Source: Shigella phage Z31. From it: a stretch of 64,000 bases of DNA. The first letter of the stretch is position 1. Every line of letters begins with the position of its first letter. Below the pieces are notes generated by a model that was not told where the DNA came from, searched no databases, and worked only from the letters and a program-made list of their open reading frames with translations. Shown piece by piece: positions 13,741 to 48,682 of the stretch. Where the stretch lies: sequence record MN655999. One strand, given 5' to 3'. A program made the translations under genes and the position numbers.

Positions 13741-13794
13741 TTTTATAATTTTTTGCAGTAATGTATGTGGTTAATGATTTTAGAGGGAGTAAAA

Positions 13795-16494
13795 ATGGAA
13801 AACGTAGATTTTAAAAACTTACATTTAGTTGGCGATACAGAAACTGATGGTTTACTCCTTGAGTTCACTAAAGTGCACGTAATGGCTTTCGCAGACTATA
13901 AATCTGACGATGAAGAGCCACCTGTATGGGTCTTTACAGATGAGCCTATCCTCGGTCACAAGTATACCAAGTACATTAAGGGTGGTTTGCGTGAAGGTGT
14001 TGAGTTTGCGTTAAAGGCAAAACGACTTTGCATCCACAATGGTCTGGGGTATGACTGGTGGGTTTTCAATCACATTGCACCCGATTTGTGGAACTTTGAT
14101 AATCCAAAGTGTAAGCCGTGGAGTAATTTCTTTCAGGATTCTCTTATCCAGTCTCGTGTTCAGTGGATGGATAGACCAACTCCAAAGGGCTATAAAGGTG
14201 CTCATGGTTTGGCTGCATGGGGTGCTCGTGTTGGTGTCCGTAAACCAGAGATTGAACATTGGGGTGTGTGGAATGCAGAAATCTTCACTCGTGTTGTGGA
14301 AGATATCCGTATTAACGCCAAAACTAAACGTGCACTGGATAATGAATATCTCAAGCTGAAGAAGTGTGGCGTAGATACTTATGAAACCTACATGCGAGCT
14401 AAAGAAACATCTTTCTGGATGAGTCAACAGGCTATCAATGGTTGGAAAGCTGATAAAGAACTTATGGAGTTCCATGTAAAGGAACTTGACAAGTTGACTA
14501 ATGAGCTTGCTTCAGAAGTTGAACCACATCTTCCTCCAACTATTAAGACCAAAGGTAAAGTCACTGGAGAAGAGTTTGCAAAAGCTTGGAATGAGTATGT
14601 TGAAGCATTTGGTCATGCAGATGGACTGAAGAGAATTACCAAGTACCCTAAGACAAAGTATCGTCAACAGGTACGTAACGGTGAGATGCAGACATATGAA
14701 ATCAAGCCGTTTGGTAAGCCAACTACAAAGATTTTTAACATTGAAAAGCGGAATTGCTATACACCAACCAACACTGTAACTGGCGAAGAGTACAAGGAAG
14801 GTTTTGTAGCAATGAAGGATGCTCGTGCAATTTGCAACGAGTTGAATGCAAAGATTGGTAAGAAATGCAAAGACTGGAAGCCAGTAAAAACAGTTAAAAC
14901 TGTGAAGTACTATAACAGTCATGTTGTTAACCACTTTGAACTTGAGTCAAGTCGCTACACAGGTTTGATTGATGCACCATATACACCAATTGAGTTCGAA
15001 GTTTCTCGTATGACTCAGGTAGCAGTTGTTAAAGACTACTTGAAATCAGTTGGTTGGATTCCAGATGACTGGAACTACAAGAAAGACTCAGATGGTCGTC
15101 CTGTTAAGGTTTGTCGTTTCAAAGACAACAAAAAGATGATTACAAAACATCCTAAGTGGGATGAGATGGTGGAACGGTGTGGTTTGAGTTATGTTGAACA
15201 TGAAGGTGTCCAGTACATTGAACATAACTGGTCTGTGAAGAAGTACACAGATTTGCTTGAGCCTTGTTTAATCCGTACTTCACCAAAACTTACTGAATCA
15301 TCTTATGATACGATTGAAGGTGAGCTTGGACAGAAGATTGCGAAATACTATACTTTGATGCACCGACGTAGAACTATTGAGAACTCAAAAGATGATGAAA
15401 AAGGTTGGTTGAACCAGATTCGTCCAGATGGTCGCCTTAGTGCTGGTGCAATGGTGTTTGGTACTTCAACTGGACGTATGACACAATATGGTATTGTAAA
15501 CGTACCGTCTGGTGCTGCTGTCTATGGAGCGCCTATGAGGGCAGTGTGGATTTGTGAAGAGGGGACTAACATTGTTTCTGTTGACCAGAACTCAGCCCAG
15601 CTAGTCCTTCTTTGTAACTTTATGGGTGATGAAGACTTCACTAAAGCAGTAACTGAGGGTAAAGAGTCAGTAGAGTTCACTAAGCAAGATGATGGTAGAT
15701 ACTACTGTAAGCATCTTGATAAGTACCTTAACCCAGAAACTGACAAGTATCTGCGTTATGATGCTGAAAATGACCTCTATGAAGTCTACACAGGGACTGA
15801 TGCGCATACACTGAACAGTATTTACTTTGGTCTTAACAAAGAAGAGGATATTGTTCGTTGCAGGGAGACACAGGATGAGGAACTTCTTCACGAGATTACA
15901 AAAGGTCGTAAGAAGAGCAAAAATGGCATCTACGCCCTGTTATTTGGAGCCGGAGACGAGAAGTTTGCAAAAACTATCAAGGCATCATCTACGGAAGAAG
16001 GTGCATTGACTAAACAAACTTACTATATGCGTCTGCCAAAGATTAAGAAGTTACTTGATAGCTTAGAAGCCGATTTTAAGGCGTCTAAAAAGGCTCTGGA
16101 AGAGGTTTTTGGGAAGAACTCTTCAATTGCTAAAGGTGGTTATATCAGGGTCGCTGGAGCATGGATATGGTGCAAATCTCCACATAAACTACTGAACTAC
16201 CTCCTGATGAGTTCGGAAGCACAGATTCAGAATGAAGCCATCAACCTAGCAGCAAGAAAAGCCTGTGAAGATGGCCTGACAAAACTGAATGCTCGAAAAC
16301 CAGCTATCGGAGCAAGGTTACTTCTGGCATATCACGACGAAAATAGTTGGGAATGCCCAGAGGGTATGACACATGATATGAAAGCAATTGCTGACTGGAT
16401 GTATGGGCAAGCTTCAAAAAACTTAGGTTTGAGGAAAGAAACACTTGTAACTGGTACAGCAAAGGTTGGTAAGAGCTGGTATGAGGTACATTGA
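13795..16494 (+). CDS. DNA polymerase, family A (T7-like) with 3'-5' exonuclease domain
   Basis: Start trimmed to MENVDFK (GAGGGAG RBS); Exo I LHLVGDTETDGL; motif B-like RKKSKNGIYALLFGAGDEKF; motif C LAYHDE. Confidence 0.9.
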   Translation: MENVDFKNLHLVGDTETDGLLLEFTKVHVMAFADYKSDDEEPPVWVFTDEPILGHKYTKYIKGGLREGVEFALKAKRLCIHNGLGYDWWVFNHIAPDLWNFDNPKCKPWSNFFQDSLIQSRVQWMDRPTPKGYKGAHGLAAWGARVGVRKPEIEHWGVWNAEIFTRVVEDIRINAKTKRALDNEYLKLKKCGVDTYETYMRAKETSFWMSQQAINGWKADKELMEFHVKELDKLTNELASEVEPHLPPTIKTKGKVTGEEFAKAWNEYVEAFGHADGLKRITKYPKTKYRQQVRNGEMQTYEIKPFGKPTTKIFNIEKRNCYTPTNTVTGEEYKEGFVAMKDARAICNELNAKIGKKCKDWKPVKTVKTVKYYNSHVVNHFELESSRYTGLIDAPYTPIEFEVSRMTQVAVVKDYLKSVGWIPDDWNYKKDSDGRPVKVCRFKDNKKMITKHPKWDEMVERCGLSYVEHEGVQYIEHNWSVKKYTDLLEPCLIRTSPKLTESSYDTIEGELGQKIAKYYTLMHRRRTIENSKDDEKGWLNQIRPDGRLSAGAMVFGTSTGRMTQYGIVNVPSGAAVYGAPMRAVWICEEGTNIVSVDQNSAQLVLLCNFMGDEDFTKAVTEGKESVEFTKQDDGRYYCKHLDKYLNPETDKYLRYDAENDLYEVYTGTDAHTLNSIYFGLNKEEDIVRCRETQDEELLHEITKGRKKSKNGIYALLFGAGDEKFAKTIKASSTEEGALTKQTYYMRLPKIKKLLDSLEADFKASKKALEEVFGKNSSIAKGGYIRVAGAWIWCKSPHKLLNYLLMSSEAQIQNEAINLAARKACEDGLTKLNARKPAIGARLLLAYHDENSWECPEGMTHDMKAIADWMYGQASKNLGLRKETLVTGTAKVGKSWYEVH

Positions 16495-16497
16495 TTA

Positions 16498-17031
16498 ATG
16501 GATTTTATTTTACAAAAACGTTTAAAGGAGCTGCTACACTATGACCCCGAAACAGGGGTCTTTACTTGGCTTCGTAGAGAAGGTAAATCAAGAGCTGTTA
16601 GTGTTTTTAACAGTAATTATGCAGGAAAGGTGGCAGGTAATATCCAGACTGATTCAAGTGGTCATAAACAGATTAGTATCTATTTTGACAAGAAAGCACA
16701 TAAAGCACACAGACTCGCATGGCTTTACGTGTATGGCAAGATGCCAAAAGGCATCATTGACCATATCAACGGAGACTCACTTGACAACAGGATTGTAAAC
16801 TTAAGGGAAGCAGATGACTTTCAAAGTGCTTGGAATAAAGGTAAGCCAGTCACCAATAAATCTGGGTACAAGGGTGTAAGTCTTAAGAAGAAGTCTGGTA
16901 AGTGGGTCGCACAGATAAGTTATAGAGGTAAGAAGATGTTTTTAGGTTATCATGACACACCTGAAGAAGCCCATAAAGCTTACTGTGAAGCTGCTGTGAA
17001 ACTCCACGGAGAGTTTGCAAAACTAAGTTGA
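16498..17031 (+). CDS. HNH homing endonuclease with AP2-type DNA-binding domain
   Basis: 177 aa; AHRLAWLYVYG...IDHINGDSLDNRIVNLR (HNH) then YKGVSLKKKSGKWVAQISYRGKKMFLGYHDTPEEAHKAY (AP2-like); begins 4 nt after polymerase stop. Confidence 0.75.
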   Translation: MDFILQKRLKELLHYDPETGVFTWLRREGKSRAVSVFNSNYAGKVAGNIQTDSSGHKQISIYFDKKAHKAHRLAWLYVYGKMPKGIIDHINGDSLDNRIVNLREADDFQSAWNKGKPVTNKSGYKGVSLKKKSGKWVAQISYRGKKMFLGYHDTPEEAHKAYCEAAVKLHGEFAKLS

Positions 17032-17082
17032 CAAGGTGCTCATGGAAGAGTACCTTATACAATATCTTATATAGGAGGTTAT

Positions 17083-17295
17083 ATGACACTTTCAGACGTT
17101 ATTCAGCAACTTCACGACAACTGCTATACTCCAGAGTTGATTCAAGAGATGCTTATTGTGGTGATGCCTAGTAAGTTCGTAAAAGGTTTTAATAGTGAAT
17201 CTTTAAAATCTGCGCATATCCTTATTGTTGACGGTAAGATTGCAAGAGACCGTACAGGAGTCCTTAAGGGTGAACGTATTAGTATTGACATCTGA
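17083..17295 (+). CDS. hypothetical protein
   Basis: ORF track 70 aa; AGGAGG RBS. Confidence 0.5.
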   Translation: MTLSDVIQQLHDNCYTPELIQEMLIVVMPSKFVKGFNSESLKSAHILIVDGKIARDRTGVLKGERISIDI

Positions 17296-17312
17296 GTATT
17301 AGGGACACCAAA

Positions 17313-17468
17313 ATGAAACGCAAAGTAAAATTATTTAGCTTATATGGAAGAGTCGGTAAAGGTTTTGATTGGCAACTGCTACGTTCAGATGTTAAAAGCA
17401 ACGAGTTAGCACAGCTCATCATAGACTACCGGCGTACATATAGAGAAGTAGAACATCGTGAACAATAA
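17313..17468 (+). CDS. small protein (51 aa), unknown
   Basis: ATG with weak RBS; MKRKVKLFSLYGRVGKGFDWQ...; below track cutoff. Confidence 0.3.
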   Translation: MKRKVKLFSLYGRVGKGFDWQLLRSDVKSNELAQLIIDYRRTYREVEHREQ

Positions 17469-17483
17469 AACAGGAGATGTGTT

Positions 17484-17720
17484 ATGTGGAAAGCAGTAAT
17501 TGCACTTGGTGTTATTTTTCTAGCTGGGTGCAACCCTTCTTATGAAGATAAAAACGCTTCTTACAGTCTCCCACCAGAAATGCAAGATTGTAAAGTCTAT
17601 AAGCTAAATGGGGATGCAATAAGCACAGATATTGTTGTTGTAAGATGTCCAAACTCTCAAACGACAACATCTTATCGTTATGGTAAAAATAGTCAATCAC
17701 ACACTACGGTTATTGAGTGA
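17484..17720 (+). CDS. predicted lipoprotein
   Basis: 78 aa; signal peptide and lipobox MWKAVIALGVIFLAGC; AGGAG RBS. Confidence 0.6.
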   Translation: MWKAVIALGVIFLAGCNPSYEDKNASYSLPPEMQDCKVYKLNGDAISTDIVVVRCPNSQTTTSYRYGKNSQSHTTVIE

Positions 17721-17937: not shown

Positions 17938-19037
17938 CAATACTGTACAAACAAAATAAAGATGGCTCTTTCAACGTCTGGTCATGCGTTGCTGTAGGTG
18001 ACAAAGTTATTACAACCTACGGTAAAGAAAATGGCAAGATGATGTTTGAAGAGTATACAGCAGAACCTAAAAACATCGGTAAAAAGAATGAGCGTAACGC
18101 TGAACAGCAAGCTCTCTTTGAAGTTGCTGCTAAGTATAAAAAGCAGGTTGACCGCAAAGGTTATGCTTACACAAAAGAGTCTGCACAGAATACTGAGAAG
18201 GTAGGTGTACAGCTTGCTCATGATGCTGCAAAGGTTAGCCATGCAAAGTATCTGAAGTTCCCTGCTGATGCTCAACCGAAACTTGATGGTGTCCGTTGTA
18301 GGATTTCAAGGCACTTGAGTATTGGCAGTGTATTTACAGCATATTCTCGTGAGAATACTGTTTACAAAATCCCTACTGAACTAATACCTGACATTATGGC
18401 AATGTTAAGGCTCCACAAAGATGTTGATGAATTTGATGGAGAGATTTATGCTCATGGGTGGGACTTAGAAGATATCGTCTCCATGATTAAAAATGAAGAT
18501 AATCCTGACAGACACTTGCTCAAGTTTTACTGGTACGATATCTGTGACAGCACTAAGACGTGGCCTGAGCGTAGAGATATTATTGAGACTTCACCATTGA
18601 ATGACTTTAGAGATGGCTGTAAAGTTGTCCCTGTTAAGTCTCGTCGTGTAAATTCTTGGGAAGAATTCGATGAAGCTCATGATAAGTGGGTTGAAGCTAA
18701 GTTTGAAGGTGCAATGTACCGTTCAATTTCTGAAGACTCTTTCTATGAGTGTTGTCACCGTTCATACTTCTTGATTAAGCACAAGAAGATGCACACTGAA
18801 GAGTTTAAAGTGACTGGTGTAAAGACCGATAAACGTGGTCATGGCAAGTTCGTTGTAGAGACTCTTCCTAACGTCTTTGTAGATGTCTCATGGAAGACTA
18901 CTCATGAGAAGAAACAGTATCTTGCTGAGCATCCTGAAGAGTTTATCGGGAAGCCTTTAACGGTTCAGTTCCAGAAGATGACTCGTAAGGGGTCTTTACA
19001 GTTCCCTGTCGGGCTAGTTATTAGGGATTATGAATAA
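17934..19037 (+). CDS. ATP-dependent DNA ligase
   Basis: 367 aa; adenylation motif I AQPKLDGVRC; phage-ligase size. Confidence 0.82.
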   Translation: MTILYKQNKDGSFNVWSCVAVGDKVITTYGKENGKMMFEEYTAEPKNIGKKNERNAEQQALFEVAAKYKKQVDRKGYAYTKESAQNTEKVGVQLAHDAAKVSHAKYLKFPADAQPKLDGVRCRISRHLSIGSVFTAYSRENTVYKIPTELIPDIMAMLRLHKDVDEFDGEIYAHGWDLEDIVSMIKNEDNPDRHLLKFYWYDICDSTKTWPERRDIIETSPLNDFRDGCKVVPVKSRRVNSWEEFDEAHDKWVEAKFEGAMYRSISEDSFYECCHRSYFLIKHKKMHTEEFKVTGVKTDKRGHGKFVVETLPNVFVDVSWKTTHEKKQYLAEHPEEFIGKPLTVQFQKMTRKGSLQFPVGLVIRDYE

Positions 19038-19260: not shown

Positions 19261-19305
19261 GTCTTCTGTTGAGGGTTCTTTACAAACAACTTAACAATAA
19301 ACTAA

Positions 19306-19911
<606 letters not shown>

Positions 19912-19913
19912 TT

Positions 19914-20354
19914 ATGAATACAAAAGCATTAGCAGCAAAGTTTAGTTACGGTGACACTGTATCACATTCTGAGATGGATACCTTCTTAGGTATTGTGAAG
20001 CCAACTTATCAAGGTGACATTGTTAAGTACGAAGATGAAATGAAGGCTTATGCACTTACACGTCTAAACCGACTTGAGAAGTTTATTGAGAAGCTTCTTA
20101 AAGAAGAGAAGATTTATCTGGTTGCTTCAATGGGTGTTGGCTATCGTGTGGTTGAACCTAAGCATCAAGCAACTATTGCAAAACGTAAAATGTCTGGTAA
20201 GATTGGTCGTGCTTTAAAGCAAGCCACTCAAGCGATTGAGAATGTGAACACTATGGCACTTAGTCATCAAGAACGTTCACGACTGATTGAACAGCAAAAC
20301 CATTTAGCTGCTATGAAAGCTAACATTAACAAGCAACGTAGAAAACCTTTCTAA
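19914..20354 (+). CDS. hypothetical protein
   Basis: ORF track 146 aa. Confidence 0.5.
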   Translation: MNTKALAAKFSYGDTVSHSEMDTFLGIVKPTYQGDIVKYEDEMKAYALTRLNRLEKFIEKLLKEEKIYLVASMGVGYRVVEPKHQATIAKRKMSGKIGRALKQATQAIENVNTMALSHQERSRLIEQQNHLAAMKANINKQRRKPF

Positions 20355-48508: not shown

Positions 48509-48584
48509 TGGAGAATCCGAAGGGACTCGAACCCTTATAAACCTGTTTTGCAGACAGGCACATAGCCATTTCTGTCACGGATTC
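48509..48584 (-). tRNA. tRNA-Cys (anticodon GCA)
   Basis: Hand-folded cloverleaf: acceptor GAATCCG/CGGATTC, anticodon loop CTGCAAA, T-arm GGTTCGAGTCC, CCA encoded. Confidence 0.7.
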
Positions 48585-48588
48585 AAAT

Positions 48589-48681
48589 TGGAGGAAGATA
48601 CCAGACTTGAACTGGTACACCGATTTCTCAGCTACTGGCAGTTTAGCAAACTGCTCCCTTACCTTTTAGGGTTAATCTTCC
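48589..48681 (-). tRNA. tRNA-Ser (anticodon GCT), type II
   Basis: Acceptor GGAAGAT/ATCTTCC, anticodon loop TTGCTAA, long variable arm, T-arm CCAGTTCAAGTCTGG. Confidence 0.65.
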
Positions 48682-48682
48682 A

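Follow-up and report, generated by a model that had tools for sequence, protein, structure and literature searches.

The HNH-AP2 class of endonucleases, with a member in Felix O1, goes back to Magnani et al. 2004, as cited in PMC5318435 and PMC2993671. The members of this class (the Felix O1 protein of the ORF218/gp95 region, proteins of RB49, RB16 and RB43, and the "IPA-HNH" relatives of ICP1) combine an HNH_3 nuclease at the N-terminus with an AP2 domain at the C-terminus, as does the protein described here, which is encoded next to the DNA polymerase gene of Shigella phage Z31; Felix O1 has an allele of 167 aa at exactly the same site, 48% identical to the Z31 protein. Felix O1 contains six HNH copies, none of them in introns (PMC3185647), HNH-AP2 genes cluster beside DNA polymerase genes, with an unstable endonuclease content at each site (PMC10055350), and both intronless homing and collaborative homing have been documented for free-standing phage endonucleases (PMC3984707).

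Three further systems are close to this locus. Gene 5.3 of T3 resembles the Z31 gene in encoding an HNH_3 nuclease (68 bits) and in being located 10 nt downstream of a family A DNA polymerase gene, but its product has 101 aa and no AP2 domain, and its similarity to the Z31 protein is limited to the HNH motif (BLASTP E 0.006); a polymerase intron occurs both in the T3 system and in the relatives of Z31. Bonocora and Shub are said to have reported in 2009 that T3 gene 5.3 homes into the empty sites of relatives, and that it cuts the intron-less polymerase gene at the position where a related phage has an intron. In the HEG islands (Barth, Dunham & Seed 2023, PMC10055350), an essential segment is situated between endonuclease genes and is exchanged as one unit; in relatives of Z31, polC is likewise bracketed, on one side by an intron that contains an Endonuclease_7 ORF and on the other by the HNH-AP2 gene (loci L003 and L020); the islands also share with this site an unstable endonuclease content, with alleles that have homologous DNA-binding ends and unrelated cores. 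Unlike the islands, the Z31 window has an endonuclease gene at just one of the two positions, and polC shows unusual divergence within the genus, whereas the segments of HEG islands are unusually conserved between distant phages. Lastly, I-HmuI, I-BasI and I-TslI are, like the product of the Z31 gene, HNH nucleases tied to family A polymerase genes of phages; their nicks fall close to a conserved motif of the polymerase and lead to co-conversion, but these enzymes are encoded by group I introns and have other DNA-binding modules, while the Z31 gene is free-standing and intron-free, and no match of I-HmuI to the Z31 protein was found at E <= 1 among solved structures.

The Z31 gene is one allele of the HNH-AP2 class, from which it shows no difference of substance. 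A 100%-identical protein is annotated as "HNH endonuclease" in BPS17W1, BPS15S6, BPS17S6 and SPJ41, and the allele at this site in Mushroom as "HNH homing endonuclease, AP2/ERF domain"; a copy of the endonuclease was found at an identity of at least 95% in 40 records, of 90-95% in one, of 80-90% in 13 and of 60-80% in four, with more distant homologues in more than 3,400 phage records. Given the report of 2004 and the existing annotation, the gene is therefore a known kind of element and a matter of routine annotation, i.e. it is already known biology; our finding confirms that annotation, with the junction being one strain-variable endonuclease site of Felix O1-like phages.

The window, by which we mean the whole stretch of 64,000 nucleotides that was analysed, is a Felixounavirus genome. 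Felix O1-like phages are used in Salmonella typing and biocontrol. The 5.4-kb stretch from polymerase to ligase matches 262 phage records, nearly all of Felixounavirus or close Ounavirinae, the best match being Escherichia phage CRP22 (95.8% over 100%). As a side observation, Felixounavirus polymerase/endonuclease sequence is also present at 92-98% identity in MG065664 and MG065668 (Campylobacter phage A126/A132) and in GU169904 (Staphylococcus phage SA1), which are probably contaminated or mislabelled records.

The endonuclease gene and its expression

The features of the polymerase junction in the window are listed below.

13765..16494, plus strand: family A DNA polymerase gene, uninterrupted, 909 aa (PF00476; phrog_17, E 8e-112)
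16483..16486, plus strand: GAGG, Shine-Dalgarno-like, within the final codons of the polymerase gene, 11 nt upstream of the ATG (putative function)
16498..17031, plus strand: HNH-AP2 gene, probably a homing endonuclease gene, free-standing, 177 aa, ATG start, TGA stop
16543..16560, plus strand: GC hairpin GACCCC-N6-GGGGTC with loop GAAACA, followed by TTTACTT, at codons 16-21 (DPETGV)
16702..16809, plus strand: HNH_3 nuclease motif region, aa 69-104, with D88-H89, N97 and N101
16861..17010, plus strand: AP2 DNA-binding domain, aa 122-171
17028..17082, plus strand: conserved intergenic element of 55 nt, present in both empty and occupied genomes
17083..17295, plus strand: conserved 70-aa gene (phrog_4230), right-hand neighbour of the insertion site

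The polymerase TGA at 16492-16494 is followed by TTA and then by the endonuclease ATG at 16498; the first-pass annotation had placed the gene 4 nt downstream of the polymerase gene, which is correct in that the ATG starts at the fourth base after the stop; the spacer is 3 nt. The same annotation had recognised an HNH motif and an AP2-type domain, and both of them match Pfam above the curated gathering scores (24.8 bits for HNH_3 and 33.3 bits for AP2): HNH_3 (PF13392) at aa 69-104 of the 177-aa protein with 54.4 bits (E 9e-15), and AP2 (PF00847) at aa 122-171 with 45.2 bits (E 1e-11). In PHROGs, the protein matches phrog_99, "HNH endonuclease" (E 5e-72), and its AP2 part matches solved plant AP2/ERF domains by phmmer (WRI1, 7wq5, E 1.8e-6; ERF096, E 1.3e-3). 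The AlphaFold2 model from the single sequence is too poor (mean pLDDT 41.6; below 50 over aa 1-129) to lend weight to the beta-beta-alpha-metal fold of the nuclease, with three strands and a helix being predicted at aa 129-176 (pLDDT 62-71). The ORF is a separate one, located outside any intron, and there is no Rfam match in 15500-17500 at E <= 1.

Residues D88, H89, N97, N101, L102 and R103 are unchanged across eight alleles that are 49-84% identical; the D-H ... N ... N-L-R pattern is, as we take from knowledge of the family, that of the catalytic and metal-binding residues of the HNH protein. The dN/dS of the gene is 0.13-0.32 within its lineage and 0.13-0.17 at genus-level divergence, values that indicate purifying selection, and 16498..17031 is not a chance ORF. 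It is extremely unlikely that the gene is a decaying remnant, i.e. an inactive endonuclease gene that is fixed in the clade and is being lost: the copy of RPN213 matches from residue 17 onward only, and the IME338 record aligns only as two pieces, which suggests a frameshift, but 38 of the 40 close records (with a protein at least 95% identical) have the complete ORF, the catalytic residues are invariant, and dN/dS is far below 1. No paralogue of the gene was found in the 64-kb window, either by tblastn (E < 0.01) or by the hairpin pattern. A second HNH family (171-178 aa, ~40% identical, with the N-terminus MLTQQTLKEYLHYDPETGVFTW) occurs at another locus of related genomes (L039, L043, L045, L056, L063, L064, L072, L074, L076 and L077); it was not found in the window.

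A scan of the plus strand over 15354-17285 found no sigma-70-like promoter, and therefore the gene would most likely be expressed by read-through from the polymerase gene, with the GAGG of the last polymerase codons as a candidate ribosome-binding site; empty-site genomes read GAAG at these positions. The intergenic element on the other side of the gene starts with TTGACA, forms a 9-bp hairpin at 17033-17056 (z -2.7) and contains GGAGG at 17074-17078; the TGA stop of the endonuclease gene lies within the resident TTGACA. This hexamer, at 17028, was considered as a sigma-70 promoter and rejected: it was not scored in the scan despite being a perfect TTGACA, and it is accompanied either by a TATA-like hexamer 21-22 nt away or by a weak -10 (TACCTT). 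Because it is unscored and its -10 and spacing are poor, we describe the region as a conserved element with a hairpin.

The GC hairpin inside the ORF was flagged in a terminator scan (-16.5 kcal/mol, z -2.5). Its 6-bp stem is invariant at the nucleotide level in all Ounavirinae HNH-AP2 alleles at the site, with the loop and the neighbouring synonymous positions varying, and the same stem is present in the second paralogue family (~40% identical), at a different locus of the same genomes. The codons of the stem are rare (CCC is 3.9% of Pro, GGG is 8.4% of Gly and GTC is 10.7% of Val), giving a joint expectation of 1.3e-4, and homologues from other phages that have the same peptide motif use different codons. 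The hairpin was rejected as a family-wide feature, with the perfect stem occurring in the Ounavirinae copies only among 80 homologues that were picked through C-terminal peptide patterns; the same hairpin with its T-run is also found outside coding sequence in unrelated AT-rich phage contigs, where it resembles a terminator. It is a reasonable guess that the hairpin acts as an attenuator or as a processing site that limits the expression of the nuclease.

Variation of the junction among relatives

Endonuclease regions are described as varying between Felixounavirus genomes (PMC8300805; PMC9951933). We have compared the junction in 35 loci, i.e. the window and 34 relatives; 29 loci were fetched from IMG/VR via the polymerase and six came from GenBank phages, and at each locus the end of the polymerase gene and the conserved downstream 70-aa gene were located. 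The junction takes four forms across the 35 loci: empty, with a small ORF only, with the Z31-type allele, or with another HNH-AP2 gene.

Empty, 61-nt spacer: 8/35 loci (L001, L009, L014, L019, L021, L023, L024, L028)
Spacer with a 41-aa ORF or with a paralogue of the 70-aa gene, unrelated and without a nuclease gene: 5/35 loci
Z31 endonuclease allele at an identity of at least 97%: 4 loci (the window, L004, L031, L032)
Z31 endonuclease allele at 84% (phiSUSP1/2): 2 loci (L015, L016)
Z31 endonuclease allele at 72% (Sf13-like): 1 locus (L018)
Other HNH-AP2 alleles, of 167 aa (Felix O1 itself), 170/171, 178 and 183/187 aa: 15 loci

The Z31 gene or its 72-84% identical orthologues thus occupy 7 of the 35 loci, with the window included; the other alleles (at least four) are 47-52% identical to the Z31 protein, and all those tested consist of HNH_3 and AP2. 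Seyj1-1, EC6, VpaE1 and Moogle are examples of empty sites. The gene is not a fixed resident of the locus, because the site is empty in 8/35 loci and substituted in others, and the claim of the first-pass annotation that such genes mark strain-variable sites is borne out by the 8 empty, 5 nuclease-less and 15 other-allele loci among the 35.

The boundaries of the polymorphism are precise. Empty junctions read ...CACTAA TTA GTA TTGACAAGG, and occupied junctions read ...CATTGA TTA (ATG...CTAAG) TTGACAAGG; the sequence to the right of the junction, TTGACAAGGTGCTC, is common to the empty sites and the window, and compared with the empty sites the indel is exact to the base, with 16498..17027 standing in place of 3 nt (GTA). 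In the near-isogenic pair of Michonne (occupied) and Moogle (empty), a 521-nt segment replaces 18 nt, and the polymerase flank on the left is 96.7% identical. The comparison of relatives that had been proposed for this junction has therefore come out as expected for a mobile gene, which is polymorphic between precise boundaries, the Michonne/Moogle pair included.

The alleles that occur at the site are only ~45-60% identical to each other, except in one block at their 3' end.

16953..17031, plus strand: 3' block of the endonuclease gene, TPEEAHKAYCEAAVKLHGEFAKLS followed by the stop, ~80 nt

The block (TPEEAHKAYCEAAIKLHGEFAKLS) is 91-98% identical at the nucleotide level in every allele here, synonymous sites included, and it is likely to be a common right-hand recombination arm, as far as can be judged from this conservation. 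The final Ser codon of the endonuclease alleles is AGT in some and TCT in others. A 206-nt module with the 41-aa ORF (no Pfam match) varies independently (e.g. L031 7264-7389; L006 6737-6862); in many relatives it precedes the 70-aa gene, following either the endonuclease gene or the polymerase stop, and it is missing from the window, where the equivalent position is about 17032.

The ORF is, with high probability, an HNH-AP2 free-standing homing endonuclease gene at a multi-allelic hot spot between the polymerase stop and the intergenic element. Six observations carry this reading: the domains, the intact HNH residues, the selection on the gene, the precise indel, the replacement of one allele by another, and the linkage to the polC allele, which is described in the next section. 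The interpretation as a homing endonuclease, made in the first-pass annotation, gains support from the precise polymorphism, the allele replacement and the flank linkage. Intronless homing is the best fit, for which we infer the cleavage, the target and the route of expression as follows. The endonuclease gene would have no promoter of its own and would be co-transcribed with the polymerase gene, and its translation would be weak, driven either by the GAGG within the final codons of the polymerase gene or by ribosomes that re-initiate 3 nt past the polymerase stop. During co-infection with a relative that is without this allele, the AP2 domain would bring the HNH nuclease to the genome of that relative, at a target in the 3' part of its polymerase gene or at its junction of polymerase and next gene; the nick or break would then be repaired from the carrier genome, and the gene would be copied in together with the flanking 3' segment of the polymerase gene, i.e. 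intronless homing with co-conversion. The right-hand crossover would take place in the 3' block and the intergenic element that are common to all alleles.

The age of the gene at this site bears on another reading, namely that the nuclease has been domesticated and is kept for a benefit to the phage, no longer spreading selfishly; such benefits might be the exclusion of competitors' markers, the degradation of rival genomes, or regulation through the AP2 domain. Between genera, the dS of the endonuclease gene is 0.62 (phiSUSP1) and 1.14 (Sf13-like), and the dS of the N-terminal part of the polymerase gene is 0.88 and 1.15 for the same pairs; the two are close, which therefore points to a gene lineage that is old at the site. 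This pattern fits long vertical residence as well as repeated homing and so tempers the case for homing, and no evidence was found for recent cross-lineage jumps of the Z31 allele, the divergence of which tracks the genome across three genera. Domestication would account for a divergence commensurate with the genome, for a site that is constant across the three genera, and for purifying selection across genus-level divergence (dN/dS 0.13-0.17); the hairpin, nucleotide-conserved in all copies, suggests regulated expression, and according to Barth et al., sequence alone cannot exclude domestication (PMC10055350). Many viable relatives, however, have nothing at the site, or a substitute that is 47-52% identical, which argues against a needed function, and competition by cutting rival genomes is mechanistically indistinguishable from homing. 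We consider domestication to be very unlikely, and homing remains our preferred reading.

The polymerase flank and the motif B intron

The linkage of the endonuclease gene to its flank is seen in the 3' part of the polymerase gene, which is hypervariable within the genus.

15600..16494, plus strand: hypervariable 3' part of the polymerase gene (polC), its last ~900 nt; the window has allele 1

Within Felixounavirus, the identity is 93-100% over the N-terminal part of the polymerase gene, falls to 65-80% from about 15600 to the stop, and is back at 91-98% within the terminal ~80 nt of the endonuclease gene. Over its last 546 nt, the polymerase gene is represented by 14 alleles among 32 loci, with a mutual nucleotide identity of 68-92%. 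Compared with the window, the dS of polC ranges from 1.6 to saturated, as against 0.17-0.27 over 500 upstream codons of the same gene, while its dN/dS is 0.03-0.08, and the segments are therefore functional alternative alleles. A saturated dS is the pattern that would be expected from repeated endonuclease-driven repair that carries flanking DNA with it.

All 40 phage records with an endonuclease protein at least 95% identical are genomes with polC allele 1, which is the only polC allele found beside such a gene. A search with a synthetic empty-junction query found no empty junction with polC allele 1 among 60 of the 295 matches, those that were listed; these thus offer no direct pair of donor and recipient for the Z31 allele, a point against the homing reading. 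The 170/171-aa endonuclease allele adjoins four polC alleles (1, 2, 3 and 10), and thus cassette and flank have re-assorted. A pattern of this sort is known in broad outline from phage HEG islands and from HNH-AP2 genes close to polymerase genes (PMC10055350). The polC segments of L009 and L015 are 92% identical to each other, and the N-terminal parts of their polymerases are ~85% identical to the window; some polC alleles are shared between genera. Both the final ~900 nt of the polymerase gene and the junction make poor phylogenetic markers for the genus and good strain markers.

The 546-nt segment lies between the endonuclease gene and a site at which relatives of Z31 have a group I intron.

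15934..15941, plus strand: unoccupied group I intron site in polymerase motif B, between KNGIYA and LLFGAGD, after the first base of codon 725

The insertion point is at about 15937/15938, 560 nt upstream of the endonuclease gene. The polymerase gene of BPS17W1 has the intron (RF00028, 62 bits; L032 6111-6394), and most of its length is found in about 95 related phage records. It occurs as an ORF-less form of 268 nt, as a form that is 43 nt longer (Mushroom), and as a form of ~802 nt (e.g. L001 2634-3439), which is the same intron with an inserted 160-aa Endonuclease_7 ORF. The announcement of the Mushroom genome mentions a 383-bp gap without an endonuclease ORF (PMC4392139), and the SPJ41 paper mentions two introns, with their positions not given (PMC9951933). 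GenBank annotates the intron-bearing genomes with two polymerase genes.

In the 35-locus set, the HNH-AP2 gene at the 3' end of the polymerase gene is distributed as follows with respect to the intron, in counts that are phylogenetically non-independent.

ORF-less intron: HNH-AP2 gene in 4/4 loci, with three alleles (the Z31 allele in L032, the 178-aa allele in L164, the 167-aa allele in L165 and L166)
Intron with Endonuclease_7 ORF: HNH-AP2 gene in 2/7 loci
No intron: HNH-AP2 gene in 16/24 loci

These counts raise the possibility of collaborative homing, where the endonuclease would cut an intron-less polymerase gene at or near the motif B intron site, and in doing so would mobilise the ORF-less intron that most of its host genomes have, or else would be shielded by it. 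Every genome examined with the ORF-less intron has the HNH-AP2 gene (4/4 above, and about 33/33 among the matches listed), of the 33 distinct phages with the Z31 allele, again among the matches listed, 25 have the ORF-less form, and introns with the Endonuclease_7 ORF pair with the gene in just two of seven loci. The intron-site sequence of the window, TACGCC CTGTTATTTGGAGCCGGAGAC, has 7-8 synonymous differences from every endonuclease-less genome, and there are precedents: collaborative homing is documented elsewhere (PMC3984707), the models being cyanophage F-CphI/psbA and the pairing of T3 gene 5.3 with the polymerase intron of phiI, and T3 gene 5.3 is likewise an HNH_3 gene just after a family A polymerase gene. 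Against this, the window itself is without the intron, with none found by Rfam in the whole 64 kb, so that the ORF-less intron in the same genome, a feature of collaborative homing, is absent here. In carriers of the 170/171- and 183/187-aa alleles, the intron site reads exactly as in the endonuclease-less genomes, and therefore these alleles cannot target it without self-cutting; moreover, the counts are not independent of phylogeny, and it is the whole polC allele that differs, not the intron site alone. On balance, collaborative homing seems unlikely at this site, and intronless homing is preferred. As a separate observation, among members that have the same polC allele, those with and those without the intron differ in their exon sequence within ~100-400 nt of the site.

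There is likewise a small chance that the HNH-AP2 gene and the motif B intron are one cooperating mobile system in which the hairpin is an attenuator. Such a system, if true, would explain why ORF-less introns are seen only beside HNH-AP2 genes, as well as the saturated synonymous divergence of the 546-nt polymerase segment between both elements, and the hairpin would restrict the nuclease to an amount that can be tolerated. Provided that the side observations hold, the locus would serve as a convenient enterobacterial model for the cooperation of an endonuclease with an ORF-less intron and for restrained endonuclease expression; of all the parts described here, just these two, the intron association and the hairpin, could merit more study.

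Further along the window, two stretches are mosaic. In 18264-18660, part of the DNA ligase gene is at 66-85% identity in most relatives, and in 19264-20260, the relatives fall into two classes from about 19264, with an identity of about 97% in one and of about 50% in the other. The minus strand contains a cluster of 24 tRNA genes at 48512-53855 (Rfam RF00005), as expected for Felix O1-like phages.
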